Shown: positions 2,046 to 51,320 of the stretch, one piece after another
How positions within the stretch are numbered: position 1 is the first letter of the stretch
Layout of the letters: every line of letters begins with the position of its first letter
Origin: a virus
Direction: 5' to 3' (one strand)
Virus record (IMG/VR): IMGVR_UViG_3300037247_000961
Location: 30,431 to 94,430 of that record
DNA: 64,000 bases
Notes under the pieces: model-generated
What the model saw: the letters and a program-made list of their open reading frames with translations, nothing else
Database searches by the model: none
What the model was told of the DNA's origin: nothing
Translations under genes and position numbers: made by a program

Positions 2046-2059
2046 TGATGGACTCCTGG

Positions 2060-3602: not shown

Positions 3603-3605
3603 TCT

Positions 3606-7569: not shown

Positions 7570-7762
7570 AGTGTAGTTTACCCCAACGGCGACGTGCCGT
7601 CAATTAAATTCTGCAACGCCTTCACGGCTTCCGTCGCTTTTTTGTAAGCCTCTCGTGTGTTCACCGGACGATATCGCTTGAGTACGATCTGCACCACTAA
7701 GAAAAAGGATGCTTGGCAAAGCAACTGGTGGGCACGGCCCAATTCAGATTTGATCGGGTAGC

Positions 7763-27785: not shown

Positions 27786-28657
27786 TGTTTTTCTTCCACG
27801 AGCGGGATATTTTGCCAGGAGCCCCGCCGGAACATGAGCAAGTTGAGTTTCAATTTGTCCGTATCGAATCGCATTGGAATATCGAACTCAAGGGCCACCT
27901 GAATATCGACACCCACGGCCGGCCAAAATCCGGCGAGCCATGTAATGATACCCGTGGTAAGATTGACGGTGTAATGTGTGTTTTCGGTCTGGACGACATT
28001 GTCCTTGAGCACAATAACGCGGCCACTGACAAGGTGTGTGATTGGACGGTCATAGTTGATACCACCATCACTGTACCGTTTGAAAATTGAATCTGTCTCA
28101 CGGAGCAACGTAATTGTGACGCTGGCTCCGGCACCCTCATTCACAATACCACTGGGCACTGTAATAGTGCCGGCCGATGTGGTACTGATTAGGAAAGTAC
28201 CATCGTTGCTTGCGCTCCCGGAAATCTCGATGTAGTCAGCCGCAAGGAATTTCTCTAGGTCGTTCCCGCTGTCCGAAATAGTGTCTGTCGCTGTAAATGA
28301 GATCGTCGAAGCCGTAAGTGTGATCGACGTGCCACCGGTTGCAACGGACTGATTATCTGTTGTGGGATTCTGCCAATCCCCGATCTTGAAGTCCGACCAA
28401 TCCTTGAATCGAAACGTGTGGGCTTTACCCTCGCGCGTGTAGAAAAAGGCCAAAAGGCTGTCGATGGTTGCCTCAAGGATGACACTGTCTTGATCCATCA
28501 GGCCATAGCCAATATCGAATTCAGCGCGTGTCCGCGCCCAATCAATATTGCGTTGCTCTTTACCTGAGCCCAACGGAGTAACAGTTGTTTTGAATCCTGG
28601 CCCGCCAAGCGCGCCGCGTTCTACGTCAACTGGAAGCCTGGTATCATGGAACGCCAT
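27782..28657 (-). CDS. distal tail protein (DUF2460/TIGR02217, GTA gp12-like) with an insertion
   Basis: MAFHDTRLP...GGPGFKT...SGKEQRN..W, FRFKDWSD, EFDIPMRFDTD. Confidence 0.88.
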   Translation of the reverse strand: MAFHDTRLPVDVERGALGGPGFKTTVTPLGSGKEQRNIDWARTRAEFDIGYGLMDQDSVILEATIDSLLAFFYTREGKAHTFRFKDWSDFKIGDWQNPTTDNQSVATGGTSITLTASTISFTATDTISDSGNDLEKFLAADYIEISGSASNDGTFLISTTSAGTITVPSGIVNEGAGASVTITLLRETDSIFKRYSDGGINYDRPITHLVSGRVIVLKDNVVQTENTHYTVNLTTGIITWLAGFWPAVGVDIQVALEFDIPMRFDTDKLKLNLLMFRRGSWQNIPLVEEKQ

Positions 28658-31600
28658 TAACCTCTCCCTCGCGCAGCGGCAATCCCACTGCCTGCTTGGC
28701 CCATGATCTGATGGCGACTGCGGTTAAACCCGCCGACGTCCGGCGATTCAATGTTCCAAATTTGTGTGATGTTTCCACCTTCCTGTCGCGCTTGCTCTGG
28801 CGTTCGTACAGACACTTCTTCGCCGCGGGTTGCCTTGAATTGAACTAATGTTCTATCTATGCCGCCTGGCCCTCCAACGGTGAAGTCTCCGCCATGTCGG
28901 AAGGATGGGCCTAGGGGGAGCAGAGCCGCGCTGGCCCCGGCGCTGCCGGCGCCGGTCAGTGGAGCAGCGCCGCCTCCTAAACTAAACAGGCTCTCTAAGA
29001 AGCCCCCACCCCCTCCACTTGCAGCAATGGTTTGAAGGGATAAGGCTGCGGCTTCGGCTGCAACGGCAAGCGTTGTTAATGATGTTGTCGCGGTTACCGT
29101 TGCCGCTGTCTCGGTTGCGGTGCCAATCGCGGCCTCTAAGGTGCCCTTTACCAGATCCGTACCAAGAGCCGTTGCCGCTGGCAGTGCCGCGCTTGTTACA
29201 TTCTCAATTGCCGGTGCGGCGTTTGTTAAAGCCTGCGTAACGGTATCTGCCGCTGTGCCTATTGCGGTCAACGCAGGGTCGACGCTAAATCCGCGACCTC
29301 CAGGATCTGAACCTGCTGGTGGTAAAGTGTCCTCAGACCCGAAGAACTTATTGAACAATCCCTGTAAACCCTTGGTCGGATCTTCATCACCGATACCAGT
29401 TTTGCCTAAGCCAAGTAAGTTGGCCAATGGATTGACGATGGCCCCCTGGATTGCCAAACGGGCCAGATCTGAAATGATGCTATTGATGAGGCTGGCAAAA
29501 TCCAATTTGCCCGTGGTGACGAATTCGGCCAATGCATCACCGGCACCACGGAAAGCATTCGTGAGCACAGATTCAATCCTTGACGCAAGGTCTTCCGAGT
29601 CACGTCCCATCTTGAGGAACGAGCGCTCGATGCCGGATACAAGGTCTGTTTGTTGATCAAGGAACGCAATGCGCGCGTCGCGCATGGCCTGCGTCCGTTC
29701 CTTCTCGGAAAGTGCAGCCGTGGCCATTGAACCATTTAGCGCATCGATAGCATGCTTATAATCTTGTACCGGCCCAAGGATATCCTCGATCACTTCACGC
29801 TGATCTCGGAGCGCCTGATTCTCACGTGCCAAATTCTCGATGAGTAGTTTATGTGCGGGCTGGAGTGCGTCATCGGCAGCAGCCTTGGCATCAAGCAGCA
29901 CTTGTTGAATCTCGCGTTCGCGGTTAGACACCTTGAGCAGGTCCGCTTCTTGAATTAAGGCTTGCCTAAGTTCCTCTAACTTTGGCGGAAGCGCCTTTGG
30001 GTCACGCCCCGAACCATCGTCGACGACTAACCCCTTTCCGGCTTGAACGCCACGAAGCCTTTGTAATGCTGCGTCCAGATTCTCCACGTGGGCAGTCAAA
30101 GTTTTCACGGCTTCGGAACCAGGAGCCAAAAATTCCGTGATTAGAAGCTGGTCCGAAATCCGAGTTTTCAATTCCTCAATGGTATCGATGAAGGCGGTAA
30201 ATTCATCGCCGGTCAATTTCCCATTCTTCGTGGCTTTTTTCAAAGCCCCTGCAATTTCCCCAATCTCTTCCGAAAAGCCTTGGATTGCATCGGTTGGAAT
30301 CACAATATCCTTGAAGAAACCTACAATTTGCTCCTTCATCTTCTCAAAAGTTTCCGCGATGTCTTCACCATTTGCCTTAGCGATAGCGGCCAAAATGGCA
30401 AATGCAGCAATTGCTGCCGCAGCCATTGCCGGAATAATGCGTGCACTAAGCAAAGTCATCGTAACAACCAACTTTTTAAGTTGACTGATGAGGATGGCAA
30501 TGGCTCCAACGACGAGCCGTCCCAAGATCACAGTGCCCATGATGGTTAGGGCCTTCGCCAACATGTCCGCATTATTGGCAACGATGCGCAAGAACTGCGC
30601 AGTCTTTTCGAGCAACGTACGTAACCCGGATGTTCCCCCCTCGTCTCCCAGTTCAAGGATCACACCTTCAAAGGCAGACTTCACACGTAGCAAAGCGCCA
30701 TTAAGGTTATCATCCATGACCTCGGCCATCTCTTCAGCAGTGCCAGCGGCTTCCCGATTCAGTCGGGCCAGTTCCTTGAGACGTGGCAAACTATCAATCA
30801 GGATTAGGAGATTATTCGCTTGTCGTATACCGACCAATTCATATGCTTGTGTCAATCCAATGTTGGCCGCACGGAGCGTCTCAAGAACTGGAATAAGCCC
30901 GCGGGATTCGATGTTGACGTCTTTTAGGCTCAGATCAACGGCCTTAAGAGATTTCTTGGCAGCACCTGCACCAGCGAGCAATTTGATGAAGGATGTACGC
31001 AAGCCTGAGCCGGCTCGCGTACCCTGAATAGCAGCGTCAGACAGTACACCAATCGCAGCCGCGGTCGTCTCAACGGAAACACCCAAGGCAGCCGCGGCCG
31101 GCGCCGCAAAGGACATAGCGTCACCAAGCTGTTCGACATTGGTATTAGACTTAGATGACGTTTTCGCGAGCACATCAATAACACGATTCATGGAATTGGC
31201 TTCCAATCGGAAACCCTTTAAGACGTTGGATGCAATATCTGCAGCCCGCGCCACATCAATCAATCCAACTTGCGCAAGGTTGAGTGTGCCCTGAATTGTT
31301 TGCAAAACCTGATTTGCATCGAAGCCCGTACGGGCAAGAAATACCATTCCCTCCGCTGCCTGTGTCGCGCTGAACCGGGTTTCAATACCAAGTTTCTTTG
31401 CTCGATTACGAAGCGCATCGAAGGCGGCACCTGTCTCCCCCGTGATAGCCTTAATCGTCGACATGGACTGCGAGAAATCCGCAAGCGTACGAATGGTACT
31501 GCGTAGAATCAGCGCCCCGCCGAGCGCGCCCAGAGCGGAGCGGAGGAGCGACACTCCACCCTGAGCGGCTCGTGACGCAGTCCCGATCTTCGCGATATTA

Positions 31601-32994: not shown

Positions 32995-34866
32995 TTAGAT
33001 GTCCGCGGAATCGGGAAGGAAGTCGAAGAACACGAACATCGCGACATAATCGAGGGTAGAATCGATTATCGCCGCAGTGGCCGCGGTCATATCCAACGGC
33101 AACGTGATTGCTTGGTCTTGCACAACGTTCAATCGCGCATCGCCCAAAGTGATCAGCGGCAAATCAAGCACGAAGCCCGCTTTGCTCCCTGCTACACCCT
33201 TGACACATGCGAAGTCGAGGGTCACATTGGCATTGTCCTTGACCGCTTCAATCGACGCCACACTGGCGAAGTACGCAGTAATCGACCCGCCGATGTTCAG
33301 CGTGCCATGACTAATCTCGAAAGAGCCCAACGTGCCAACGGCTTTGTTCGGAGTCAGGTTTTCGTTGAACGTGATTTCGAGGTTCTGTGCGAAAGCGAAC
33401 AGTGGAGTCGGCGCCTCGGTGCCGTCCACGTGTACCGCCAGCCGAATGCGACTAAAGTCGGACGAAGTGTTGAAAGCGTCCGATTCAACTACGGCCGGGC
33501 GCGTCCCGGTCTTGAGCGCAGTCGGCCCGTCAACCGTTGAACTGTCGCCGGCGATGAACGAAAGGTTGGCCATTAGCTTGCTCGCCGAAGGAATCGTAAG
33601 CGATGCCTCGCTTGGCACTGCGCCCTCGATATATTCGGCCTGAATCTCAGACGATTGAGCGTCATCGGGTTTGCCGAGTTGCCGCTCTAGCTGGTAGGTG
33701 CGCCGGAAAATGAGGTTGCTAGCATCGTTCTCATTCTTGAGCACACGGCCAAGGTAGATTTCGATGGTCTCATCACCGCCGGTCTCTGTGACCATTGCCA
33801 AATCAGACTTATCGAATTCCAACCGTGCCGCAACAACCGTGCGTACCCGCTTGAAACCGTTGTTTGCCGCGGTATCGAATAGGCTTGCCGCAAGCTCCCC
33901 ACCGATGTAGACCCACTCACCTGGGATTACGCCCAAATCGGTGAAGTCCGTTGTGGTGGAGGTAAGTGCCGGGAATGTACTGGCCACGTCCACATCAATG
34001 TCATTGGCGTCGCACTGGAAGCCAACTGTGGTCAACGTCGCTGCGGCATTCGGAGTTGCATCCAGCACCAAGTTTTCTACGACGGTGATGATGTTATCTG
34101 CAACGGAGGAAACGACAAAGTTGCCATTGTTCCCAGCGTCGTCGTTACCCTGCATGCGAACGATATCGCCTGCACCCCAGACCAAGCCATTACCATAGGT
34201 CAGGGTCAAAGTGAGAGCATCGTCACCTGAGCCAGTGATCTTCGTGGTAGCAGCCCCCGCGCTGGTATCCGTGTCGGTGCGGCCTTCAAGGCCACCCGAG
34301 AAGCCGGTGAAGGTCAAAGCCACGGTATCCACAAGGCCACCAGTCTGTCCGGTCACCAAGAACCGAGCCAAAACCGTCGCATTCGCGTCAGTGACTTCGA
34401 CGAGATCACCGTCCGCGTAGCCAGTGCCCGCCACCACCACGACAGCGGAGAGCGCCACGCGACTGTCAACGGTGATTGTGTCGGTCGCCGTGGTAATGCC
34501 GGTGATCGAATAATCCTCGAACCCGCCGGTTATACCCGCCCGCCGGGGCTGACGGTCGTCTCCGACGTCATTCTTGCGCCGGAAGTCGGCAAACATGACA
34601 CCTTCCCACAAGTCTTGCAGGCTGGTTTGCGTCACGTCAAAGGTGTAGCCGCCGGATGCGTCCAGGTCCGTGACCAGACCCTTCTTCGGCATACGGCTCG
34701 CGTTGATGGGGTTACGAGCAGTCGTTACGATGCTTCCACCGAAATCGTCGTACTCGTTGGGCTCCATCGGCAGCCAGATCGGCGTGCCAGGGAGCACCTT
34801 GAAGCTCAGTTCCTCTGCGACTCTCAAACCAGTCGCGTTGGAATCGATTTTGTTGACAGCCGCCAT
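32995..34866 (-). CDS. major tail tube protein with inserted domains
   Basis: NKIDSNATGL, EPNEYDDFGG, ARNPIN.SR..KG, AFNTSSDFSRI, GSITAYF. Confidence 0.8.
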   Translation of the reverse strand: MAAVNKIDSNATGLRVAEELSFKVLPGTPIWLPMEPNEYDDFGGSIVTTARNPINASRMPKKGLVTDLDASGGYTFDVTQTSLQDLWEGVMFADFRRKNDVGDDRQPRRAGITGGFEDYSITGITTATDTITVDSRVALSAVVVVAGTGYADGDLVEVTDANATVLARFLVTGQTGGLVDTVALTFTGFSGGLEGRTDTDTSAGAATTKITGSGDDALTLTLTYGNGLVWGAGDIVRMQGNDDAGNNGNFVVSSVADNIITVVENLVLDATPNAAATLTTVGFQCDANDIDVDVASTFPALTSTTTDFTDLGVIPGEWVYIGGELAASLFDTAANNGFKRVRTVVAARLEFDKSDLAMVTETGGDETIEIYLGRVLKNENDASNLIFRRTYQLERQLGKPDDAQSSEIQAEYIEGAVPSEASLTIPSASKLMANLSFIAGDSSTVDGPTALKTGTRPAVVESDAFNTSSDFSRIRLAVHVDGTEAPTPLFAFAQNLEITFNENLTPNKAVGTLGSFEISHGTLNIGGSITAYFASVASIEAVKDNANVTLDFACVKGVAGSKAGFVLDLPLITLGDARLNVVQDQAITLPLDMTAATAAIIDSTLDYVAMFVFFDFLPDSADI

Positions 34867-36602: not shown

Positions 36603-36971
36603 TTAGACCTTGGTGATGTCCTGGACGATGAGGCACTTGCCGATAATCAATGTTGCTTTGCCTCCACCAGCATCGATTTGCTCGATATCATAAAAATAGG
36701 TATCAGGCGCGATATCAGTGTCAGTTATAGTCGGCGCAAAAGAAATCTGTCCGTTAACGGCATCAACGAGCACTCCAGCGATTGTAAATTGCTGATTATC
36801 CGTATTCGCAGGGTCTTTCTCACTGTTGACGGTCAACTTAAACGAGAAACCCGAAACGTCAATGGCGATTCCGGCACTGTCCTGTCGGACGAAGCCCTTG
36901 GCATTGCTGTCACCCCGACCCCAGCAAATCGTCTTAGTGGCGTCCTTGGTCTGGTCAATTGCACAAGCCAT
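36603..36971 (-). CDS. BppU N-terminal-like Ig-fold virion protein
   Basis: RGDS...IDVSGFSFKLTV...GQISFAP...YFYDIEQ...G. Confidence 0.65.
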   Translation of the reverse strand: MACAIDQTKDATKTICWGRGDSNAKGFVRQDSAGIAIDVSGFSFKLTVNSEKDPANTDNQQFTIAGVLVDAVNGQISFAPTITDTDIAPDTYFYDIEQIDAGGGKATLIIGKCLIVQDITKV

Positions 36972-36972
36972 G

Positions 36973-39900
36973 TTAAATCCCCGTATCCCCTCCAGCCCTC
37001 ACGATGATGTCCGAAATGCCCGCCAGCACAATGCCCGCCGGGGACGGAACGCCAATGTCAGGATCATCAAGCAGTGCGATGAACTCCGCCACGAATAATG
37101 GACCAGCGAGAACCACAACCCCGGTTCCAGCCTGGGCCAAGGCGGCAAGGGTCTGAACGCCAGCCCCAATAAAGACTTGAACACCGTCTCCGTTCTGTAC
37201 GAAATCGGCTAAAGTCTGGGCACTGATACCCTCGAAGCTTATACCACCAATGCCGCTTTGAGTCAAGCTTGAAAGGGTCTGACTACTTGCGGCGATGAAG
37301 ATTTCAACCCCCATTCCCGCCTGAGCATAGTTAGATAGAATCGATGCACCAGCACCAACTGGTGCCATCACTCCAACACCGTTTTGAATAATATCCTGAA
37401 GGACTGAGGCGCCTGTTCCGATGATGATTTCACTACCGGAAGCGGCCTGTAACAATTCAGCAATAGTCTGGGCTCCAATCCCAGAAGGTATCATCACTAC
37501 ATCGCCAGCCTGTATAAATTCCGCCAATGTCTGCACAGACGCTGCAATGAAGAATATTTGCCCAGTGGCCGCTTGCGTGATTTGTGCCAGAGTCAACTCG
37601 CCCGTGACGGACGGGATCATCAAGGCAACACCAAATTGGAGATAGTCCAAAAGTAATTGGCTCCCGGCCACTGTAAAGATTTCTGCGGCGGAAGCTGTTT
37701 GTAAGAAATTGGTTAATGTTTGAGCGCCCACGGCCGTTGGCACCATATGGACAGCCCCGGATTGAAGGTAATCGCCCAAGGTCTGTGCGCCTGCAAGAGT
37801 AATCGTTTGGGAATGAGTCACATCACCGGATTGTAAATAGTCCGGGAGAATCAAGGTTCCAGTTCCGTCAGGGTGTATCAATCCTACGCCGGCCTGTTGC
37901 AATTCGGCCAATGTCAAGGCACTGGCCACTGCAAAAATTTGCGCGGCTGTAGCGGCTTGAAGGAAGTCAGCCAGGATTTGCCCGCCTATGCTAGATGGGA
38001 GCATTAAGGTCACACCGGCTTGTTGTAGTTCTGCCAATGTCAAATCGCCGGTCACTGTGAAGATTTCACTGGCCACGCCGGCCTGGAGGTAATCAAGCAA
38101 TATTTGAGCGCCGACTGGTAAGAAAATTTGCGCAGCGCCCCCAGCCTGTTGCAATTCAGCTAATGTCAAGGCACCTACTGAGGATATCGCCAAAGAATGA
38201 GTCACATCACCGAATTGCAAATAGTCCGGTAAGATTAAGACCCCAGTTCCCTTTGGATGCATCAGACCCACGCCGGCCTGCAAGTAATCCTCCAACGTCT
38301 GACCACCGTCCACGGTGAAGATTTCACTGGCTGTAGCGGCTTGGAGGAAATCAGCCAGAACTTGGACACCCGTGCCGGCTGGAATCATCACAGTCACGCC
38401 GGCCTGTTGCAATTCGGCCAATGTTAGATCGCCGGTCACTGTGAAGATTTCACTCACTGATCCTGTCTGGAGGTAGTTCGCCAACGCTTGCGCTCCGTCC
38501 GGTATAAAGATTTGCACGGCAACCCCGGCCTGTTGCAATTCGTCCAATGTCAAGGCCCCAGCTACCGATGGGAGCATTATGCCATTGCCGCTCTGCAAAA
38601 AGTCGAACAGGCTTTGGGCACCTGTTGCAATGAAGATTTGCACCGCGGAACCAGATTGTAGAAAGTCCGCCAAGACCTGAACGCCCGATATAGAATGCGG
38701 ATGCGCACCGACCCCGGCTTGAAGGTAGTCGTCTAGTGTTTGGTCCCCCGCTGCCGTGAAGGTTTCGAGCGATGTCGCCGCACCGGACTGGAGGTAGTCC
38801 GCAACCACTTGGGCTCCGGTCACCGTGAAGATTTGAACGGGCGAACCGGCCTGGAGGTAGTCTGCCAGCACCTGAGCGCCAACAATGTCCGGGTGCATGT
38901 GGGCTTGACCAGCCTGGAGGTAGTTGGTCAAAAGCTGAATGGCGGTTGCAATGAAGATTTGATTTGCCGCGCCTGCCTGGAGGTAGTCTCCCAGTGTTTG
39001 AGAGCCGTCTGCGGAATGAGGGTGCAAGCCTTGGCCCGCTTGTGTGTAATCGGGAAGCGTTTGGGCTCCGGCGCCACTCGGTGGTACCGCTCCCAGCACG
39101 ATCACCCCGTACTTAGTCGTTCCAGCATCGTCGTAGACATAGAGAAGATCACTGGTGCCTACCCGACAGTTTATACGGTTGACCGTGACGGCATCGAGTT
39201 CTTCGTTGTCCGTTCCGCTTCCGCCGTCCACGTCATCGTAGTGGTACAGGTCTTGATCTACGCCGGCCGCCCCGCCAGCGGAATAAAGCAGATGCACATC
39301 TGTTGTGCCTTCAAGGGCTAGGCAGAACGGTGCGAATGGTGCCGCAGTCCTACCGTTACCAAAAACAAATTGTTGCCCAGTTCCTGTAGTTACCTCTATC
39401 TCTACTCGCGCGGCTTCGGCAGATGTTAATGGTACACCAAAACCATATATTTTAACCTCAAGTGCCTGTACCTTAGCCCACGTCCACCCACCAGACGGTG
39501 TGGCAAAATTAAAATATTCCCCCCAATCAGCGGTGTCCGGACTAGCAGACGGACCATTCAAATCCTCTCCTAATCCGTCTGTGAAAATATTACCCTTAAC
39601 TATATCCAAAGCGCCTATCGACGCACCAAATATCCTTGCTCGAATTGATTTAATACTGTCGCCCGAAGCCGGGGCGGTTGTTCCTTCTCCGAAAAGGAAA
39701 TTAGAACCAAGCCCTCCAAGTGTTGTTGTTGTCGCAAGTGTCGATGTTGAACCGTCAAAAGCATTTGCATCATCGGTCCAAACTCCATCAGTATCCGTAG
39801 GCCCGCCATCAGACGCATCAAAATAATATGTTGCTGTTGCTATATCGAGACTAACGGTCGGGCTCACACCGCTTGTCCAACTGGCAATAGTAATTCTATC

Positions 39901-40590
39901 GTCGCTATCGATGTAAGGAACGTAGATTTTGTTGGCGCTGTCGATGACGCCAAGGGCGACCAATAGAGTTGCAGTATCAACCTCCGCATCGACCTCGACC
40001 GCGCTGGCAATGGTGTCGTCCGAGGCGATGCTTTTCAGGTCAACATCGTCATTCGTCAGGTCGCCGTAAATCCAGGAAATCCGGTCCGAACTGTCCGGCC
40101 CAACAACAGAAACACCAGCATAGTCCGTGCTCGCTGTGCCTGCTGTGGCTTCGCCCTCGTTGATCCAACCCCCGCCCTGCTCGGTGAACACTCGCAGGGT
40201 TTCATCAGTCCCGTCGTTATACGCAGCAGCAAGAACTACATCGCCGTCACTTCGCAACGCAAGACTTACAGCAGGTTCTGCTGGTGCATTCTCAAAATTC
40301 GTATCCCCCGCAACTGCAACTTCCTCGTCTACCGTCGTCCAAGCATCCGTGCCAGGATCGAACACATGGTAGGCCACACGGCCCCCCCGTTGTTGTGTAC
40401 CGATATGAAAATCGCCACCGAATTCGTATGCCCAATAAGAAACAATCTCATTCGCTGTGCCCAAAGTATATCGAGGAGAATTTGCACTATCTTGACTATC
40501 CCAATCCCCATCAGCAGGATCAGCCACAGTAGTCTTAACTACATGAAGCTGTAGGAAATCCGTTGTGGTGAGGACAATATACTTTGCCAT
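36973..40590 (-). CDS. 1205-aa virion-like protein: beta-rich N-terminal half plus 31 tandem 21-aa repeats
   Basis: Repeat consensus xxxGxQTLxDYLQxGxxxxIF/MxP. Confidence 0.8.
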   Translation of the reverse strand: MAKYIVLTTTDFLQLHVVKTTVADPADGDWDSQDSANSPRYTLGTANEIVSYWAYEFGGDFHIGTQQRGGRVAYHVFDPGTDAWTTVDEEVAVAGDTNFENAPAEPAVSLALRSDGDVVLAAAYNDGTDETLRVFTEQGGGWINEGEATAGTASTDYAGVSVVGPDSSDRISWIYGDLTNDDVDLKSIASDDTIASAVEVDAEVDTATLLVALGVIDSANKIYVPYIDSDDRITIASWTSGVSPTVSLDIATATYYFDASDGGPTDTDGVWTDDANAFDGSTSTLATTTTLGGLGSNFLFGEGTTAPASGDSIKSIRARIFGASIGALDIVKGNIFTDGLGEDLNGPSASPDTADWGEYFNFATPSGGWTWAKVQALEVKIYGFGVPLTSAEAARVEIEVTTGTGQQFVFGNGRTAAPFAPFCLALEGTTDVHLLYSAGGAAGVDQDLYHYDDVDGGSGTDNEELDAVTVNRINCRVGTSDLLYVYDDAGTTKYGVIVLGAVPPSGAGAQTLPDYTQAGQGLHPHSADGSQTLGDYLQAGAANQIFIATAIQLLTNYLQAGQAHMHPDIVGAQVLADYLQAGSPVQIFTVTGAQVVADYLQSGAATSLETFTAAGDQTLDDYLQAGVGAHPHSISGVQVLADFLQSGSAVQIFIATGAQSLFDFLQSGNGIMLPSVAGALTLDELQQAGVAVQIFIPDGAQALANYLQTGSVSEIFTVTGDLTLAELQQAGVTVMIPAGTGVQVLADFLQAATASEIFTVDGGQTLEDYLQAGVGLMHPKGTGVLILPDYLQFGDVTHSLAISSVGALTLAELQQAGGAAQIFLPVGAQILLDYLQAGVASEIFTVTGDLTLAELQQAGVTLMLPSSIGGQILADFLQAATAAQIFAVASALTLAELQQAGVGLIHPDGTGTLILPDYLQSGDVTHSQTITLAGAQTLGDYLQSGAVHMVPTAVGAQTLTNFLQTASAAEIFTVAGSQLLLDYLQFGVALMIPSVTGELTLAQITQAATGQIFFIAASVQTLAEFIQAGDVVMIPSGIGAQTIAELLQAASGSEIIIGTGASVLQDIIQNGVGVMAPVGAGASILSNYAQAGMGVEIFIAASSQTLSSLTQSGIGGISFEGISAQTLADFVQNGDGVQVFIGAGVQTLAALAQAGTGVVVLAGPLFVAEFIALLDDPDIGVPSPAGIVLAGISDIIVRAGGDTGI
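37108..39078 (-). repeat. coding tandem repeat, 31 units of 63 bp (three of 69 bp)
   Basis: 657 aa = 28x21 + 3x23; recurring DNA words such as GGCCTGTTGCAATTCGGCCAATGT and CGGTCACTGTGAAGATTTCACT. Confidence 0.85.
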
Positions 40591-41936
40591 CAGATTTCAA
40601 ACGGTCCCGCGAAGAAGTTTTGGGTACCAAGTATTCCGTCAGAAAGTGCGGTGAAGGTTTCGCTGGGTTTTTCGTTGGTCTCAATAGCCCAACCCATAAT
40701 AATATCGGCAGAGCCGTTGACGGTATTGATAGTAGTGGTGAACCCGCCACTATCAAAACTTAAATGGGAGTGGTCTTGCTCCACTGTTGCTGTATCGTCA
40801 TCACGGAAGTCGATAACCCGACTGCGGAACAGATTGGCGGTGTCGGTAGTCACCGTGTTATAGGCATTGTAGAAGGAGTGACAGGTTTCCTCACCGCTGC
40901 CAGCGTTGGAGCTTATCCCCATCGGCCCAGCGGTAGCGTCCGAGGCAATAGTGCCACCAACCGAACGATCACTTATGGTACTCAAGCCCGTAAGTCCTAG
41001 TCCAACATACTGCGGTATGAAGCTCAAACTGAGAGAGGGCGACCAAGTTGCACCGCTCGTTGGTAGTGTTGTGTCGAAGACTGCCGCGCTTCGGTCACTC
41101 AAGTCTAAGGCGAGAGAATAGACCTCCATCCCCGCACCAGCACCATTGTCGCGCGTAGTGACTTCCCAAGTATCTGTTGTGTGTTCTAAATCTGTGACTT
41201 CCAAGCCCCAATCTTCACCACCAGCTTCTGTGATGATATTGAGCACTCGGTCATTGGTAATTTCTGCGTGTGGTGCGCCCTCAGTCGCATTATGATCGCT
41301 CGCCCAGCCAATCGACCGCTGCGAGAACGTCCAGCCGCCCCCATCACTCCCCGTCGCGTGGCAGACTCCGAAGGAGTTGTTGATTCCCGAACTGGCGCTG
41401 TCCTCGCCAGAAATATCCGAGCCGATGAAGAAGATCAGCTTGTCGTTGCCGTCCGTGAAGCCAGAGTGGGAGATGGTGGCCGTGCCATCGGCAGAGGAGT
41501 TGATTGCGGAGCTTTGTAGAGAGACGGCAAGATCGGCCCCGCCAAACATAATGACGGTGGCGAAGGAAACAAAAGTCCCAAGAGAATTAGTTAGCCTTAC
41601 ACCATCTGTTATTGCACTTGCAGTACCCCGTTTTCTTACTGTACCACTTGCAAGAAAGAGATAATAAGAGTAAGTATTTGATTTATAAGCATCACAATCT
41701 ACTTTGCTGGAACTATTATCATCTTGGTGAGCAATACAATAATCACTGGTGAAATCACTAAATCCAATAGATGCTATTGACTCATCAAAAACTGAAGTAT
41801 CATTAGTAATATCAAGTGTAGCAATAATGATGCAGGCTTCCGGCGTTCCAAAGCCCACCTTCGTAAAATCAGCTGTCCCTGTAGAACTTTCTGCTAGTGC
41901 CCTACCAACAACCGCAATCTTGACATCACCCGCCAT
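40590..41936 (-). CDS. acidic Ser/Thr/Gly-rich beta-structured virion-like protein
   Basis: Start MAGDVKIA; composition; 1-nt stop/start overlap with the repeat gene. Confidence 0.7.
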   Translation of the reverse strand: MAGDVKIAVVGRALAESSTGTADFTKVGFGTPEACIIIATLDITNDTSVFDESIASIGFSDFTSDYCIAHQDDNSSSKVDCDAYKSNTYSYYLFLASGTVRKRGTASAITDGVRLTNSLGTFVSFATVIMFGGADLAVSLQSSAINSSADGTATISHSGFTDGNDKLIFFIGSDISGEDSASSGINNSFGVCHATGSDGGGWTFSQRSIGWASDHNATEGAPHAEITNDRVLNIITEAGGEDWGLEVTDLEHTTDTWEVTTRDNGAGAGMEVYSLALDLSDRSAAVFDTTLPTSGATWSPSLSLSFIPQYVGLGLTGLSTISDRSVGGTIASDATAGPMGISSNAGSGEETCHSFYNAYNTVTTDTANLFRSRVIDFRDDDTATVEQDHSHLSFDSGGFTTTINTVNGSADIIMGWAIETNEKPSETFTALSDGILGTQNFFAGPFEI

Positions 41937-42474
41937 GACTGATCTCCTTCGAAGCCTTAGCGTAGGAGGACAGCCCCAACTGCCCGAGGATGCGATCAAC
42001 AATAGCGTCGTGGCCGCTCGGGAGCCTTTCAAACCTCACCGGGCCAGCTTGCAAGTCGTCGATGATTTCTTGGGAGCCACAGGCGCCGACAATCAAGGTA
42101 TCGTCGTCATCGTCCAGCACGACGCAGTGCATTTTACTGTCCTTGACGGCCCGCATGATTGCGGCTTGGCCCTTCTTTGAGAGTGCTGCTTTGGGTGTTA
42201 GAGATTTAGCGACCAGAACATGCCCATACTGACACCACCTACGATCCATCAGCACGCCGCAGCTATCGGGTCGGTCTCGGTTTTCCAGGTCTGAGCCAAT
42301 GCCGCGTATCCAGGAGCAGTTGTATTCCGCACACATCTTTGGCCGATCCGCGTAGATCGTGCAGCGAAAGCCAAGTTTGCAAAGATGCTGGCAAGGAATA
42401 CGCGCAGGCTTGTCGATCTCCTTAACGGAAGGCCAGCGGCAACAAGCCGAGCATGTGCCGCACTTCCGAGGCAT
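41926..42474 (-). CDS. YkgJ-like Cys-cluster (CxxCxxCC) protein
   Basis: CGTCSACC...CQHL....CTIYADRPKMC..YNC.W. Confidence 0.75.
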   Translation of the reverse strand: MPRKCGTCSACCRWPSVKEIDKPARIPCQHLCKLGFRCTIYADRPKMCAEYNCSWIRGIGSDLENRDRPDSCGVLMDRRWCQYGHVLVAKSLTPKAALSKKGQAAIMRAVKDSKMHCVVLDDDDDTLIVGACGSQEIIDDLQAGPVRFERLPSGHDAIVDRILGQLGLSSYAKASKEISHGG

Positions 42475-42698
42475 CAAACATTCTCCTGCCACTCGACACA
42501 GCCAAAATCTTGCTTTGTAAAGAAGCTCCCCTCACCGCTATCTCGCCCGCCAGCACGAGCGCGGATAACAGTCTCCCAGACAGGGACCTCGTTATCAATC
42601 CCTGCCTCGCCAAGTAAGGAACAGTGGCCCCATCCAGGCAAAGACTCGCTGTCTAGGCTGTCCCAGAACTTACATGAATTACAATGTAACTGTCTCAT
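42474..42698 (-). CDS. small Cys-rich protein
   Basis: CNSCKFW...GHC...TKQDFGCVEW; TAATG coupling. Confidence 0.65.
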   Translation of the reverse strand: MRQLHCNSCKFWDSLDSESLPGWGHCSLLGEAGIDNEVPVWETVIRARAGGRDSGEGSFFTKQDFGCVEWQENV

Positions 42699-42859
42699 TA
42701 GCTCGCCGCTTCTGCCAGGCACTCTTGATCTTCGCCGTTAAAATCGGCACCGCCGAACATGATGACAATACACTCCCTTGGTGTGCCAAAGTTCGTCTTG
42801 GTAAAATCCGTAGACAGCCTGACGCCATCGGTAATCTCTGTGGGATGATCTTTTTCCAT
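42698..42859 (-). CDS. 53-aa ORF built from motifs of the 40590-41936 protein (absent from the ORF track)
   Basis: SD GAGGTG; MEKDHPTEITDGVRLSTDFTKTNFGTPRECIVIMFGGADFNGEDQECLAEAAS. Confidence 0.55.
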   Translation of the reverse strand: MEKDHPTEITDGVRLSTDFTKTNFGTPRECIVIMFGGADFNGEDQECLAEAAS

Positions 42860-42901
42860 GGTTCAACTCACCTCTTTGGCGTTCGCTTGTATCATAAGTA
42901 G

Positions 42902-44167
42902 TCACGCAGGAACTCCACCAATACGGTACATGGTGAAGATTATCGACGGCGTTCTCGGGACTGCGGGCGGTATGACCACCGCGTCAGTGTTCTTCAACCC
43001 CATGCCTATAGCAGAGTTACTTACCCTCTGCATCATTCGTATCTTATCCCCGACACCTAGCTGAATAGTGATCGAGAGGATAACAACATCCGTAATATCA
43101 GAATCCTTGATGGTCAACTTGATGTTCGAGTTGGCCTCGTCTGCGAAACCAGAACCCCTGTCTACTTGCAGGAACAGGTCAAAGTCCGTCTTGACCGAAC
43201 CCGAATCCTTCCCTACTTGAGGCTGGGGCGACACAAAGTACACTCCAGCCGTATCAATCGTGATTTCCCCTGGGTTCACCGTTGTCGAGTGAATAAGCCC
43301 GTTGATGGCATCCTGAACATTGTAGGTAATCACCGTTGGGTCCGTGTCCCCCGGAACCTGATCCACTGAACTGCTGAGCTGCGCATAGATCGTCTCGTCT
43401 ACGATAACGGAAGCATGAAGCTCGTTCACCCCCGTCACGTTATTTGCGTCATCAACGATGACACCAGAACCTTGCAAGTTCTTACCGCTAACTCCATTAA
43501 AGCGAGTGATGGTGTTATCCACAGACGAGGCGGGACCGGACGCATCGCCGCCTCCCTGAGCCTGCCACACGACTCCGTTGAAGAACTCGACTTGATCCGT
43601 GTCGATGTTGTAGATCACCATTCTGGCAACAGGCGTCAGAGCGTCTCGCTGGACAGTCGTAAGCTGATTAAGCAGGAGAGCCTTGTCCGTGGCCTTTAAG
43701 TCGATAGAAGCATCTGCCGCTGGGGCCGTCAGCGCACCAACGCTTAATTGCTTCTGAACCGCCACATCTTGGTTGAACGTCCACGCCTTGGTGGTGTTTA
43801 GCCACAGGATGGTCTTATCGCTGCCTGTATCCCCAAAAAGGACTATCCCACCCCCATCGGCTGTAATGTCAGTTGGTGTACCAACGTTATCGAGTACAAG
43901 ATTTTTATTTGAAACATTAAGGGCGCCCTCTACATCAAGTGTCGCCTGGAAGATCGCGTCATTCTCGACGAGCAAGCCGCCACTCAGAATTGTATCACCC
44001 GCAACAAGCAAGTTGCCGAAAACACTTAGTGTCTCGAATTGAGGGCTGTCTATGGTCCTAAGGGCTTGACCAAACTCTACCCCCTTCTCAGTAGAGTCTA
44101 CTTGAACTACTTCTCCGCCATGCCCAGCGTATAGAGCGGCAGGGGTCAAAAACTCAACAGCAGCCAT
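42902..44167 (-). CDS. fibre protein with a C1q/BclA-like C-terminal domain
   Basis: ADGGGI, LTTVQRDAL...IYN.D...FNG..W, GEITIDTAGVY...QLGVGDKI. Confidence 0.65.
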   Translation of the reverse strand: MAAVEFLTPAALYAGHGGEVVQVDSTEKGVEFGQALRTIDSPQFETLSVFGNLLVAGDTILSGGLLVENDAIFQATLDVEGALNVSNKNLVLDNVGTPTDITADGGGIVLFGDTGSDKTILWLNTTKAWTFNQDVAVQKQLSVGALTAPAADASIDLKATDKALLLNQLTTVQRDALTPVARMVIYNIDTDQVEFFNGVVWQAQGGGDASGPASSVDNTITRFNGVSGKNLQGSGVIVDDANNVTGVNELHASVIVDETIYAQLSSSVDQVPGDTDPTVITYNVQDAINGLIHSTTVNPGEITIDTAGVYFVSPQPQVGKDSGSVKTDFDLFLQVDRGSGFADEANSNIKLTIKDSDITDVVILSITIQLGVGDKIRMMQRVSNSAIGMGLKNTDAVVIPPAVPRTPSIIFTMYRIGGVPA

Positions 44168-44207
44168 AATGTTTCTCCTAGTTAACGATGCAAATGCATT
44201 TCTATCC

Positions 44208-44528
44208 CTAACTCGCCGCTTCAGCAAGCCGTGCGTTCACTTCGATATTGGTGGCATAGAACGTCACGTCCCGATCACCAATCAGCATCAGGATATTGTC
44301 CAGCGTCTTCCGGAGCCGCAGCTTCTTGGCGTTGGTGTTGGCCGAATCATAATGCATCTTGAGTACATCTAATTCGGCCTCGTCCTCTGGCTCCAGTTTG
44401 AACTGAGCGATGATCGTGACACGAGAGAATCCCGTCGCGCCATCGGCCCATTCGCTGAGCGCCGCCTGGAATCCATGGGCGTTAATGCGTGGGCTTTCGA
44501 TGCCACGCAGACGATCCAATAGGCTCAT
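44208..44528 (-). CDS. hypothetical protein
   Basis: SD GGAGG; helical. Confidence 0.6.
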   Translation of the reverse strand: MSLLDRLRGIESPRINAHGFQAALSEWADGATGFSRVTIIAQFKLEPEDEAELDVLKMHYDSANTNAKKLRLRKTLDNILMLIGDRDVTFYATNIEVNARLAEAAS

Positions 44529-44544
44529 GCCATTACCTCCGTAT

Positions 44545-45543
44545 TTACGTCGCCGTTGGACCCTGAGGCTGTGTAATGGTCCAGGCAGTGAAGCTCACCG
44601 TTGCACCCGACACAATGGCCACGGTATTGAAGATGAAGTCCGCGGACGCCGTGCCAGCCTCACCATCGATGTGGCTATTGAGAACCGTGTCAGCCACATT
44701 GGACGAGGAGCCTCGGCAGTAAAGGACGGTACCCGTATTGTCGGCCGACGCATCGTCTGTGATCGCAGCGGCAGTGGCCAGGGCACCAGGAGTGTCGTCG
44801 GTGGAGGCACCGAACGCGGTCGTAGAGCAAGTGGCAGAGAACAGAATCGTGCCAACGTCAGCCGCGTCCGGATCGACGGGCTGTGCACCGGTCCATCCCT
44901 GGATGACACCGCCGAGTGACCCTTCATCCATGAGATCCACCGAAGCGTCAATGCCCGCCTGAGCGAAGGCGATAGACACGTTCGTGTTCAACGCGAACAT
45001 TTCGTCAATGCCAAGATGTAGCTGTTCATCCGGCCAGAATGTATCCTCGGGCGGAAGCGGGTCGGCGCCCTTGCCCACCTTGCCACGCTCGCGGACATTG
45101 CCCGCTGCACGTTCCTCTGCCTCGCCCGCGTACAACGGCCACCGGGCATCCTTCATGCCGTGACGCGTCACACGCGTACCGACCTTGGTCTGACCAACGA
45201 CGGAGGTTCCGATCTTGCCGGGAATGTGATTGCCGTCTGGATCGATGGCCAACTTGTCGGCGAGGATCTTTTCGAATGTCTTCTGAGAGCGCGGAATGAA
45301 CCGTTCCATCGCCTCCTTCTCGAACTCGGCTAGGCTATCTGGACCGAGACGTGCCTTGAACTTGGGAAGGAGATACTCGAATTCATCCTTGTAATCGGCC
45401 CGCTCCAGACTCTGCATGGCCCATTCGCGACCATAGATAGCTATTTCAGAATCCTTGTTCGAGAACCTGCTGGGCAGGCCAAAGTGCGAGGCCCAGACCT
45501 TTGCTGCTTCGTCAAGAGTCGCAGTGTCAAGATTACGTGCCAT
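44545..45543 (-). CDS. virion structural protein: charged N-terminal region plus a conserved C-terminal beta domain of about 150 aa
   Basis: C-terminus WTGAQP..PD...GT.L...AFG...AITDD.SAD.TGT...R...DG..GT..AD...NT..IVSG.TV....TIT.P; own leader and SD. Confidence 0.7.
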   Translation of the reverse strand: MARNLDTATLDEAAKVWASHFGLPSRFSNKDSEIAIYGREWAMQSLERADYKDEFEYLLPKFKARLGPDSLAEFEKEAMERFIPRSQKTFEKILADKLAIDPDGNHIPGKIGTSVVGQTKVGTRVTRHGMKDARWPLYAGEAEERAAGNVRERGKVGKGADPLPPEDTFWPDEQLHLGIDEMFALNTNVSIAFAQAGIDASVDLMDEGSLGGVIQGWTGAQPVDPDAADVGTILFSATCSTTAFGASTDDTPGALATAAAITDDASADNTGTVLYCRGSSSNVADTVLNSHIDGEAGTASADFIFNTVAIVSGATVSFTAWTITQPQGPTAT

Positions 45544-45677
45544 GATTTTGTTTCCTTGTTAACGCGGGTTGAGAATCACCGCCCGCGCCATGGCGAGCAA
45601 GAGACGGAAAAAGGGTAAAATTTGCATCTTTTTATGATGGGCACGTTACCACACTTCGGCCCAAAGATGCAAGCGAA

Positions 45678-46982
45678 TTAAGTCAATTCTCGCCAGGACA
45701 TTGAGCCCTCAACATTTGCGGCTGTCACTCCACCAATGGGCCGAACACACAATACAATTGTGTCCAAAGTTCCATCGATGGCAGATCCTAGAACCAGTGC
45801 ACTTGGCATAACGCCACTATCCGATCCTCCATCTTTTCCAGACTCAAGATAGCCCCCAGCAAGTTCATCCCCACCAGTCACTGCATTCGCAGTAACGCCA
45901 AGGGCGGTTTGGACAGCGGAATTAGATAAATCACCGTAGGTAAATGTTCCAGCAACCGTTGGATTAAATAGCAAGATCCATTCAAGAAATTCAGAATTAG
46001 ACTGAGTCTGCATCGCCATTCTGAGCATCTTAATAGTGGTGCCAATGAAATCCGCCTTGAGCCGAATGCCGACAACTGCATAGATGGTATTCTCCACCGC
46101 TGTTACGACCGCTGCCCCAGCCGTAGACTTGTAACGAACGATGCCGATGTCATCTGTTCCTCCCTCAGCGACCACGCTAGCACAGATGACTCGCATCGAG
46201 CAGACACCTGAATCGGCCGTCGTGGTAATTGCATATCTGAGCGGAAGATTTGGGGTACTAGCCCAAGGAATGATACCTGTGTTAGCAACTTCAGTTTTGT
46301 GGACGTAAACAATAGACCCGTCAATCTCGAAACCAAAGCGAACACGTCCAGCAGAGAGCCATTGAAAATCGATGACAAATATTTGCGACTTGGTTATATC
46401 CAGGATCACGCCAGAGGGATTGAATACATCGTCATCACCATCCATGGTGTCTATGTTCCATGCGGCTTGGGCCACAGAGGAATCTACCACGGACCCATTA
46501 TCCTTGGATCTAGTGACGATGTTTATAGTTCCAGCGTTACTTTCGAAGAAGGCCCCATTATCATCATCGAACATGCCAAGTTGTCGCACGCATCCAGTCT
46601 TTATTCCACTGGCAAGTTCAAGGACAGTAGACATAAGAATCAATTGAGATTTACCCGGCTGGTAATTGAACCTGCGAAAAGTTTGCCTTATTCGAGTTCC
46701 AGCTGTAGCATCCGTGCTTGTCCAATCAATATAAGGCTTGTCCACGGTCGGTCCTGCAACCGCCATTGTGCCTGTTAGCACTTCGTCCCAGAATAAAGGC
46801 TGGTTGCTCCCGTGGAGTAGTTTACTGTCAAATTCGGTAAAGGGTTGCGAGACCCGAAATCTTCCAAAGGCATCAACTGACGGCCCATCATCGGAACTGA
46901 CTAGGACTCTTTGAAGCTTTTTGCCTCCATCATCTCTGGAGGCATAAACTTCACCGGTACCATATGCGGGTCCAATAGACAT
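45678..46982 (-). CDS. virion-like lectin-fold protein
   Basis: VDAFGRFRVSQP...FD, RQT...YQPGKS, IDFQWL..GRVRFG, W.E end. Confidence 0.7.
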   Translation of the reverse strand: MSIGPAYGTGEVYASRDDGGKKLQRVLVSSDDGPSVDAFGRFRVSQPFTEFDSKLLHGSNQPLFWDEVLTGTMAVAGPTVDKPYIDWTSTDATAGTRIRQTFRRFNYQPGKSQLILMSTVLELASGIKTGCVRQLGMFDDDNGAFFESNAGTINIVTRSKDNGSVVDSSVAQAAWNIDTMDGDDDVFNPSGVILDITKSQIFVIDFQWLSAGRVRFGFEIDGSIVYVHKTEVANTGIIPWASTPNLPLRYAITTTADSGVCSMRVICASVVAEGGTDDIGIVRYKSTAGAAVVTAVENTIYAVVGIRLKADFIGTTIKMLRMAMQTQSNSEFLEWILLFNPTVAGTFTYGDLSNSAVQTALGVTANAVTGGDELAGGYLESGKDGGSDSGVMPSALVLGSAIDGTLDTIVLCVRPIGGVTAANVEGSMSWRELT

Positions 46983-46983
46983 A

Positions 46984-47352
46984 TTATGTTTCGTTACACG
47001 TCACAACTAATTTATAGTAAACTGTTCCTGTGACGCCTGCGGGCGTCGCTCTTACGGATTGAGTGTTGGCTGCCCAAGTGACGGTCGACGGAGCACTCGC
47101 TGTTATTAGATTGTTAAGCGGCGGCTCAAAGACCGGAGCGGTGTTGACCGTTTGGATCTCGATCAGTACTGTGCCGGCTGAAGGGACAACAGGAATAGTG
47201 CCGGCTGCGTCACTGAAGAATTGCACTCCAGCAAAGCAATGCGGCTTAGTGATATCGAGTTCGCCCAGGGTAATGATTGACCCAACTGCAAACACCGCGC
47301 TCTCAATGAACGCAACCGTCTTATTTGCACCACGACGTGCTCCACCTGCCAT
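46984..47352 (-). CDS. small beta-rich virion-like protein
   Basis: Packing and composition. Confidence 0.6.
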   Translation of the reverse strand: MAGGARRGANKTVAFIESAVFAVGSIITLGELDITKPHCFAGVQFFSDAAGTIPVVPSAGTVLIEIQTVNTAPVFEPPLNNLITASAPSTVTWAANTQSVRATPAGVTGTVYYKLVVTCNET

Positions 47353-50070: not shown

Positions 50071-51108
50071 CTATGCTTCCCGAGAAACCAATCTTGCGAA
50101 CTTGATCATCTTCCGCTCGGGGTACACCCGATTCCAGGAAGTGGCCACGTTCAGTTGATTGGCACCTGTGCCGTTGCCCGGCCCACCGTTCGGGGCCGTG
50201 CCTGTGTAGGCATGCCCGACCGGGTGAAGCGACCATTGCTGACGGGAGTAAAGAATCTCCTGCCCGCCGCCGTTACCGGCGCCCGCGGCGCGGACGATCT
50301 CGGTCGGCACCTTCGGGGGACTAGAGCCAAGCCGCAAGAAGCCGGCACCAAACAGCCACGAGTCGTAAACATTCGAGGCGTTGGGCATGCCGTCATCGAT
50401 CAACACCGACCGGCCAAGGAACGTGGGGATGTTGACCACACCGTTCGAGTCCGGAATGAAGTCGATCAGGTTGTTCTTCTGCATGCGGTTGTACACGACC
50501 GAATGAACCATGATCGCGACCAGGTCTTCCATCGAGTCGCCCATCGTAACGGCGGTGTCGAGGAACGCCTCGGCCGAGAAATTGGTCACGCCATCGACGA
50601 AGCTGGAACCAGAGATGTCGTTCTGGTAATCGCCAGAGTCGTTGGCAACGTTGTCCTTGATCACACCGTTCACGGTAGCGAGGACAATCGTTTGAAGGCG
50701 CCGGGTCCAATAGAAACCGACCCTGCCGATAATGGCATCGAGCGGATCTTCACCGGCCAGTACCGCGGACAGATCGGCACTCGACCAGGACTGGTTACGG
50801 TTCAAGCGAACCGCGATCTCTTGGTCGGTCTCGATTTTCTGCGGATTAGGAGAATCCGTTCCACCGGAGAAGCCAGCGGACGTCGAGGTATCAGTTGACA
50901 CCCGATCCGCGTCGCTATCCAGATCACGGAATGACGGAACGTTGAAGGTGAGGCCCCCGCCGGCCAGCATCTCGTCAATGGCAGGATCGCGCACCGCAAC
51001 ACCTGAAGTGATGATGCGAGCCTTCTCCTCCGTCAACTGCTGAACGTAAGGGGTGAAGATTTCCGGCACTATGACGTCGGAAACTTGGGTGATGGGACCA
51101 GCGGCCAT
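50071..51108 (-). CDS. major capsid protein
   Basis: T.VSDVIVPEIFTPY, GG.TFNVPSF.DL, MGD, MVHSVVY..M.K.NLIDFIP, HPVG, W.RV. Confidence 0.9.
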   Translation of the reverse strand: MAAGPITQVSDVIVPEIFTPYVQQLTEEKARIITSGVAVRDPAIDEMLAGGGLTFNVPSFRDLDSDADRVSTDTSTSAGFSGGTDSPNPQKIETDQEIAVRLNRNQSWSSADLSAVLAGEDPLDAIIGRVGFYWTRRLQTIVLATVNGVIKDNVANDSGDYQNDISGSSFVDGVTNFSAEAFLDTAVTMGDSMEDLVAIMVHSVVYNRMQKNNLIDFIPDSNGVVNIPTFLGRSVLIDDGMPNASNVYDSWLFGAGFLRLGSSPPKVPTEIVRAAGAGNGGGQEILYSRQQWSLHPVGHAYTGTAPNGGPGNGTGANQLNVATSWNRVYPERKMIKFARLVSREA

Positions 51109-51320
51109 GGGAAAATCTCCTTTGCAGGCTGGCTATGGGATAAACCATCGCCGAGCACCATGGCCGGGTCTGGAGGGATTGGAGGCAAAATCAGACTGGC
51201 CCATGGCCATCTGATTTCGCACCTTATATACACGATCTTGCATCAAGATGCAAGTCTTTTCTAGAACAAAAAGGGAATTGGGTAATATTCTTGCGTTTTT
51301 ACATCATTGGTCGATTTTGG

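Follow-up and report, generated by a model that had tools for sequence, protein, structure and literature searches.

In Agrobacterium phage 7-7-1, homodimers of the garland protein gp014 bind to the beta-helical and distal domains of the tail fibre gp015 (PMC12796354). The garland proteins of phage Milano, to which the Milano authors assigned the fold of T4 gp8 and A511 gp105, form a filament like beads on a string, to which no string protein has yet been assigned (PMC10811340). In phage 812, six arm-segment dimers per arm are joined by extended arm-scaffold linkers, which complete continuous seven-stranded sheets (PMC13433997), and in the neck fibre of cyanophage A-1(L) trimers assemble by themselves into a chain that has no string (PMC10966104). 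Here, we analysed a window of 64,000 nucleotides (nt), namely bases 30431-94430 of the 94,430-bp viral record IMGVR_UViG_3300037247_000961, which has direct terminal repeats. All genes of interest lie on the minus strand of the window and three of them, named after their lower coordinate, are our main subject: gene 36973, encoding a protein of 1205 amino acids (aa) with an array of 31 repeat units, gene 40590, encoding a 448-aa protein, and gene 44545, whose 332-aa product carries a domain related to gp014. The reading that we favour, tentatively, is that the products of genes 44545 and 36973 form one accessory virion appendage, a folded rod carrying garland-type partners, to which gene 40590 adds a third piece.

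Gene 44545 and the garland proteins

The product of gene 44545 has a helical N-terminal domain (about residues 1-188) followed by a beta C-terminal domain of the garland family (about residues 189-332). A profile of 16 sequences of the 44545 family matches the PDB chain 9rkv_A, which by translation is gp014 of phage 7-7-1, at E 2.7e-7 over 130 of its 141 residues, and by this comparison the C-terminal domain is homologous to gp014. Within the family, conservation is highest in the C-terminal strands, and the 188-aa N-terminal domain is conserved as well. In 7-7-1 the gp014 gene adjoins the tail-fibre gene gp015; as in that pair, and in gp125/gp127 of Milano, gene 44545 stands beside a beta-rich fibre gene, and in both phages the relative is a dimer that is bound to fibres in many copies. 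Unlike these relatives, 44545 has the additional N-terminal domain, and whereas the relatives go with the baseplate fibre of a myophage, the candidate partner of 44545 is the regular array of 21-aa units of a siphophage.

The baseplate arm of phages 812 and A511 is comparable in another respect, as a family of small dimers, with the garland fold according to the Milano authors, is strung there on the linkers of a second protein. This is also the logic of the first-pass annotation of our sequence, at which the repeat protein was taken for a string or ruler that would polymerise 44545 subunits, one per repeat. However, the 812 scaffold interleaves folded domains (bulge, elbow and C-terminal) with its linkers, whereas the candidate track here is a 31-fold regular repeat, and no sequence match of 44545 to gp8, gp105 or gp118 was found.

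Gene 44545 had also been credited with a promoter-like motif, a leader hairpin and a Shine-Dalgarno sequence. The AAGGA Shine-Dalgarno sequence and the hairpins are indeed present, but a sigma-70 consensus scan detected no promoter in the 44545 leader and the fold of the leader is no better than that of shuffled sequences (z -0.85). On its coding strand, the window has just two exact copies of the 10-mer CTTGCATCTT, one at 45664-45673 in the 44545 leader and one at 51245-51254 in the capsid-gene leader, with about 0.1 exact copies expected by chance (our estimate). The 10-mer may be a phage late-promoter or regulator site. In the capsid leader, CTTGCATCTT is part of a palindrome, with TATATA found 17 nt later.

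The repeat protein and its relatives

The 1205-aa protein consists of an N-terminal domain, the repeat array and a short C-terminal tail (Table 1). The regularity that had been noticed in its C-terminal half was fully recovered: 31 units, three of them of 23 instead of 21 aa, follow one another in register over residues 506-1171. Their consensus is GxQxLxxxLQxG, followed by a more variable half, which is of two main types. Among the 28 canonical 21-aa units Q12 is invariant (28/28) and L7 nearly so (27/28), followed by G3 and G14 (23/28 each) and Q5 (20/28). The composition agrees with the earlier description as well, since the 666 repeat residues include a single Lys and no Arg, together with 31 Asp, 18 Glu and no Cys or Trp. 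In about 12 of the 31 units, M-x-P-x-G takes the place of a good strand. The array is old and maintained by selection at the protein level, as Tandem Repeats Finder detected no tandem repeat at the DNA level; on the same result, recent expansion of the array was rejected. A strict 42-aa super-repeat was rejected too, because the two unit types alternate only loosely.

No relative of the 1205-aa protein was found in 50,697 phage records (megablast of the region, tblastn of the protein). Searching viral contigs with the repeat protein, as a single sequence or as a profile, and genome contigs with its relative P0002 returned nothing. The protein has no Pfam, PHROG (E<=0.01) or PDB sequence match, save a chance sub-threshold one to GUN4_N, and a Pfam scan of nine representatives of the repeat family gave nothing above the cut-offs. 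The 24 homologues that were obtained from metagenomes reveal a modular architecture, at which the array and a tail of about 45 aa follow unrelated N-terminal domains: the propeller described below, LamG (PF13385) and one other domain, which looks beta-helix-like when read by eye. In loci L011 and L014 the array is nearly a stand-alone protein. The repeat region is matched by 217 representatives among 1.84 billion proteins, and across these the last six or so units and the tail of about 45 aa are the best conserved stretch. The unit count in the 118 representatives with profile-detected units has a median of 6 and a maximum of 34, which places the 31-unit array of the window at the long extreme.

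Pairing of gene 44545 with repeat proteins

Co-occurrence of the two families was examined both ways, from the loci of the N-terminal propeller and from the 44545 profile. Relatives of residues 1-505 are encoded at 34 metagenome loci. A 44545 homologue lies upstream in four of these (L002, L014, L020 and L027), two of which, L002 and L014, have the repeat array too, and L003, which has the array, ends just where the homologue would be expected. About ten array-less propeller loci with enough upstream flank have no 44545 homologue. In the other direction, the 44545 profile retrieved 15 viral contigs, and a repeat-family protein is encoded just downstream of the 44545 homologue in L040, L042, L043, L046, L047, L050, L051/L052 (apparent duplicates) and L054; none of these eight positive contigs carries the propeller. 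In L045 a repeat array starts at the contig end, and in L044 and L049 the homologue stands without a repeat protein in the 3.6-5 kb downstream. Leaving out contigs that are too short to judge, the pairing is found in 9 of 11 distinct assessable contigs (the eight scored positive and L045), the loci not all being phylogenetically independent.

The pair follows the portal gene, the capsid gene, or tail and lysis genes in different phage backbones. The earlier proposal of a single system comprising the repeat protein and the product of gene 44545 is thus borne out by families that are adjacent or nearly so in most of the assessable contigs and in unrelated backbones, including the comparison across phage genomes that had been suggested as a check. 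Since the pairing holds whatever the N-terminal domain, the conserved partner of 44545 is, as far as gene content tells, the repeat and tail part of the fibre.

In L002, a PF00685 sulfotransferase gene (7638-8480; Pfam E 8.5e-28) lies between the 44545 homologue and the fibre genes, and sulfotransferase-like sequences were recognised, by eye only, in L003, L027 and L048.

Predicted fold of the repeats

AlphaFold2 predicted residues 490-1205, from 17 sequences, as all-beta with two strands per unit, at a mean predicted local distance difference test (pLDDT) score of 66. In VIA-align this model matches right-handed parallel beta-helices at Z 18-20 with a root-mean-square deviation (rmsd) of about 3 A over 280-300 residues, namely the phi29 gp12 appendage, the 9NA tailspike, PL6 lyases and VacA p55. 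Lower scores were obtained with pertactin (Z 15.6) and with the 7-7-1 tail fibre chain 9rkv_M (Z 13.8). Foldseek against the PDB returned only weak solenoid matches, none at E<=0.001, and the repeats match no curated beta-helix sequence family (Pfam and PHROG at E<=0.01; PDB sequences). The predicted fold thus aligns, at Z of about 20, with phi29 gp12 and the trimeric beta-helix tailspikes of the 9NA/P22 type. Unlike the repeats, the tailspike helices are irregular in sequence; for the repeats, neither Pfam nor PDB sequences gave a match, and catalytic residues were not identified here.

Parallel beta-helices have coils of about 18-23 residues and rise by 4.8 A per coil. If formed by a single chain, 31 such coils would give a rod of about 15 nm. 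Modelled alone, the repeats adopt a compact beta-helix with this 4.8 A rise per unit, which could therefore not hold one 140-aa domain per unit, and the earlier idea of one subunit per repeat on an unfolded ruler finds no support in this low-confidence model.

Two further likenesses were considered. The curli subunit CsgA is built of strand-arc-strand units with Q-x-G-x-G arcs and Gln/Asn ladders; here, the invariant Q12 is followed by x-G-x-G, and CsgA (8c50_A) aligns with the model at Z 17.6 but with an rmsd of 10 A. Tape measure proteins are helical, lie inside the tail tube and are expelled. Common to them and to the ruler proposal is the concept of a polymer whose length is dictated by that of a single protein. 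A ruler of their type would be a long helical protein, whereas the repeat region is predicted to be all-beta, and the window has its own tape measure.

The propeller and the putative docking peptide

The fold of the N-terminal domain was read from the natural fused relative P0005, which is 42% identical to the window protein in a full-length alignment and whose AlphaFold2 model is a six-bladed propeller (pLDDT 82.9). The top Foldseek matches of this model are GH33 sialidases (E 3e-10), accompanied by fucose-type propeller lectins. On the basis of the model, the N-terminal domain is a six-bladed sialidase-like propeller, an assignment that is new in this analysis. The propeller domain has no Pfam sialidase or BNR match, the ESM Atlas held no usable match for it, and a BFVD search with the propeller model returned generic propeller proteins only. 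In a sequence comparison of 40 homologues, the only conserved Arg are R113 and R170, and the catalytic set of sialidases (an Arg triad, a Tyr/Glu nucleophile pair and an acid/base Asp) is not evident. A domain of about 150 aa is inserted in the propeller and shifts between loops among the relatives. The K1F endosialidase likewise carries an inserted domain in its propeller and continues as a beta-helical stalk, a layout mirrored by the order of propeller head, inserted domain, predicted beta stalk and C-terminal tail in our protein. L004 comes from a related siphophage, with a major tail protein that is 56% identical, and there (1906-3930) an RCC1-repeat propeller takes the place of the 21-aa array in the fusion to this propeller.

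The stop codon of the 448-aa gene overlaps the start codon of the 1205-aa gene at 40588-40590 (as TGATG), and the last 23 residues of the 448-aa protein form a peptide ending QNxFxGPFEI. Among the loci this peptide terminates 28 open reading frames (ORFs), 27 of which are followed by a propeller ORF at -11 to +9 nt, and the propellers after these 27 ORFs begin like the MAKY of the window protein. Four proteins (three natural fusions and P0008) have peptide and propeller fused, and ten propellers are of a cis form with the peptide within their own chain. The peptide with its QNxFxGPFEI end was found on at least four unrelated protein families (loci L002-L035), and the propeller gene that comes after it lacks the peptide. 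In the P0005 fusion model, it forms the first short strands of the propeller at pLDDT 92-94. Because the peptide makes up the first strands of the propeller in fused relatives, the 448-aa protein probably plugs its C-terminal peptide into the propeller in trans, and the pattern looks like a split-domain way of chaining fibre proteins. A frameshift or read-through that would fuse the two genes was rejected, as no canonical slippery heptamer was seen at the junction and 27 relatives share the stop/start arrangement.

The 448-aa protein itself belongs to a family of over 100 clusters with 45-75% identity over about 420 residues and swappable C-terminal tails. The docking peptide is present in 3 of 105 members, and some of the other tails end LLGVG, like short propeller proteins and one repeat unit. 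In another phage type a gene of this family again follows a Cys-rich phrog_9155 gene, downstream of the capsid gene. The family has no PHROG match, and only a marginal match (E 0.009) was obtained against PDB sequences. Judged from these alignments and from the lack of a PHROG match, it is a common, undescribed structural protein of uncultured phages.

The neck fibre of A-1(L), which had been offered as an analogy, is like the present case in being a flexible multi-protein appendage (gp82, gp81 and gp80) of repeated globular units joined head to tail via short terminal elements; the docking of the 448-aa protein tail into the propeller would resemble it in spirit. As a model for a string it was rejected and the analogy does not fit, since its trimeric beads self-assemble into a chain that has neither string nor ruler (PMC10966104), and no homology was seen.

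Genome setting of the module

The window comes from a marine phage, for which PHROG matches give the usual siphophage gene order. Besides the genes listed in Table 1, a scaffold gene, head closure, tail terminator and a tail tip of gene transfer agent (GTA) type were matched, and the major tail protein is about 51% identical to its counterpart in Pseudomonas Yuavirus. The interval from the capsid gene to the head-tail adaptor holds about 13 kb of extra genes, and our finding concerns the lower 9 kb of this block.

Table 1. Features of the fibre module and its surroundings, in coordinates of the window
Feature	Position	Strand	Basis and remarks
Gene 44545 leader	45544..45677	-	134 nt; CTTGCATCTT, two hairpins, AAGGA Shine-Dalgarno sequence
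Gene 44545, 332-aa protein	44545..45543	-	C-terminal domain: phrog_3758 E 5e-20, profile match to 9rkv_A E 2.7e-7
106-aa protein	44208..44528	-	no family match (PHROG, Pfam)
421-aa fibre-like protein	42902..44167	-	likely start is an internal Met; weak phrog_5621
188-aa Cys-rich protein	41926..42492	-	phrog_9155; sub-threshold PF03692 CxxCxxCC
448-aa protein	40590..41936	-	conserved, widespread core family
Docking peptide, last 23 residues of 448-aa protein	40593-40661	-	ends QNxFxGPFEI
1205-aa repeat-protein ORF	36973-40590	-	ORF call
Predicted six-bladed sialidase/lectin-like beta-propeller, residues 1-505	39076..40590	-	P0005 model, Foldseek, alignments
Inserted domain of about 150 aa, roughly residues 250-405	39376-39843	-	alignments
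Repeat array, residues 506-1171	37078..39075	-	31 units: 28 of 21 aa, three of 23 aa
C-terminal tail, 34 aa	36976..37077	-	within the 45 residues past the last profile-detected unit
122-aa protein	36603-36971	-	phrog_1084 (function unassigned in PHROG); starts 1 nt past the repeat-gene stop
Head-tail adaptor, 303 aa	35679-36590	-	phrog_477, PF20557; borders the module, membership not implied
Portal	57896-59410		PHROG match
Major capsid protein	50071-51108		PHROG match
Major tail protein	32995-34866		PHROG match
Tape measure	28657-31554		PHROG match

The head-tail adaptor does lie beside the repeat gene, as first described. It has about 120 extra residues between the N- and C-terminal parts that match the 213-aa adaptor of L004 and L020, and this segment could be a docking platform. 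Between adaptor and repeat gene stands the 122-aa gene, whose phrog_1084 homologue comes after the repeat protein or is the last gene of the module in L002, L003, L004 and L016; it was not found in the contigs retrieved with the 44545 profile. The product had been labelled a BppU-like Ig protein, which we could not verify: a Pfam scan of five family members at E<=5 hit neither BppU nor any Ig family and yielded just two sub-threshold matches, DUF4121 and MtxA_IG-like, and the PDB sequence search gave no match.

Upstream of the 448-aa gene, the 421-aa protein has no match in PDB sequences or Pfam, and its C-terminal domain appears jelly-roll-like by eye. In the unrelated contigs L017, L025 and L038, too, a Cys-rich phrog_9155 gene stands just upstream of a member of the 448-aa core family or of a propeller gene, and its product may help to assemble or modify these fibres. 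The acidity ascribed to the proteins of the block holds for those checked (isoelectric points of 4.0-5.6), but not for the CxxC protein encoded at 41926-42492, with 8.4. Beyond the 44545 leader, a 434-aa protein (45678-46982) has homologues, at 32-37% identity, among the virion structural proteins of marine cyanomyophages (S-RIM) and the podophage HMO-2011; it has no match in PDB sequences, and the gene preceding it (46984-47352) encodes a DUF7265 protein. Their similarities suggest that this pair is a second, separately acquired fibre-like unit within the same block.

In the window, as in L003, L004 and L016, the module borders on neck genes. In the Yuavirus group, the nearest cultured relatives, the equivalent genome slot holds lysis genes. 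A head or neck location deduced from gene order alone was rejected on this ground and because the cassette is placed elsewhere in other phages (after the portal, capsid gene or tail genes); the head or neck appendage that had been proposed is thus not established.

Discussion

Our preferred reading is that of a folded rod with garland-type partners. The 1205-aa fibre would have a six-bladed propeller head of glycan-binding type, a repeat rod and a conserved C-terminal tail. Its 31 repeats would fold by themselves into a beta-helix with one coil per unit, probably bundled as in tailspikes, and several 44545 copies would use their garland-type C-terminal domain to bind to this rod or to the conserved units at its end, thereby cross-linking the fibre or tying it to the virion. 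The 448-aa protein would insert its C-terminal peptide into the propeller in trans. This proposed binding mirrors that of 7-7-1 gp014 on the beta-helical tail fibre encoded by the adjacent gene; physical contact between the proteins is what we infer here, together with their copy numbers, the polarity of the fibre and its position on the virion.

Several points weigh against this reading. Confidence in the repeat model is low (pLDDT 59-66 over five models), below what would be expected for a regular solenoid, and the two isolated units in the P0005 model score less than 50. Both faces of the predicted repeat strands carry conserved hydrophobic residues, which makes a bare monomeric rod unlikely. 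Moreover, the relatives with the garland-family fold that are strung on extended chains favour, by analogy, a string over a rod. The precedents point in opposite directions: gp014, which is the nearest relative by sequence, binds to a fibre that is folded as a beta-helix, whereas in Milano and 812 a string is the precedent.

The most serious rival, which we consider unlikely, is accordingly a filament of scaffold and segments, at which the repeat chain is extended, with every unit, or every two units, contributing a beta-strand as a bridge between adjacent dimers of the 44545 C-terminal domain. The number of repeats would then set the number of beads and hence the length of the filament, from tens of nm to more than 100 nm. 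In favour of this rival, a 44545-repeat pairing that is indifferent to the N-terminal domain places the partner site in the repeats or the tail, and the garland homology is solid (E 2.7e-7). The Milano garland proteins have the gp8/gp105 fold and form beads on a string (PMC10811340), and in 812 continuous seven-stranded sheets arise where linkers of the scaffold protein occupy the spaces between segment dimers (PMC13433997). By our estimate, 21 aa would suffice for about one strand plus the span of one small dimer. The low AlphaFold2 confidence for the repeats, the conservation of the C-terminal strands in the 44545 family and the leader 10-mer common with the capsid gene, which hints at high expression, also go in this direction. 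However, AlphaFold2 folds the array alone into a regular beta-helix, and some 12 of the 31 units have the Pro/Gly turn M-x-P-x-G where the bridging strand should be, in an array whose unit types do not strictly alternate. Both partners are strongly acidic, with net charges of -48 for the repeats and -15 for the 44545 C-terminal domain. In addition, gp013, the candidate string of 7-7-1, is Pro-rich unlike these repeats, and no protein fusing 44545 to repeats was found among 150 listed representatives of the repeat family. We remain equally doubtful of the full form of this idea, in which the array is a natural regular string with one 44545 subunit per unit, the repeat count sets the length of a long flexible filament, and the fibre pieces are chained by lending the propeller's first strands to the preceding protein.

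It is improbable, to a further degree, that 44545 is a one-to-one adaptor or assembly factor acting only on the last six or so units and the tail, which would fix the fibre to the virion or aid its folding and leave the array as a spacer. The strong conservation of just that stretch among the 217 representatives and the median of only 6 units per protein would suit such a role, as would a cassette that works in many phage backbones and a conserved 188-aa N-terminal domain that could bind the virion. Against it, the garland-type relatives are dimers present in many copies, and a leader motif like that of the capsid gene speaks for 44545 being made in more than a few copies. Least of all do we expect the two proteins to have no physical link, 44545 being a capsid or tail decoration protein that co-travels with a free-standing fibre in a mobile cassette: the 44545 homologues of L044 and L049 that lack a repeat protein and the propeller module of L004 that lacks 44545 would allow it, but most contigs have the two genes in close succession although what surrounds them differs widely.

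Whether the fibre is a rod with garland-type partners, as we tentatively favour, or a string, the analysis defines a portable cassette of a garland-family protein and a 21-aa-repeat protein, which recurs in many marine phage backbones. It links this cassette to the solved assemblies of 7-7-1, Milano and 812, whose own string question is open, and if the string reading is true, it points to the type of partner that could be the string of the garland in Milano and 7-7-1. The clean split/fusion pattern, at which the tail of one protein would complete the propeller of the next, offers a simple means of chaining fibre modules. How phages find their hosts is decided by accessory fibres, most of which are unannotated.

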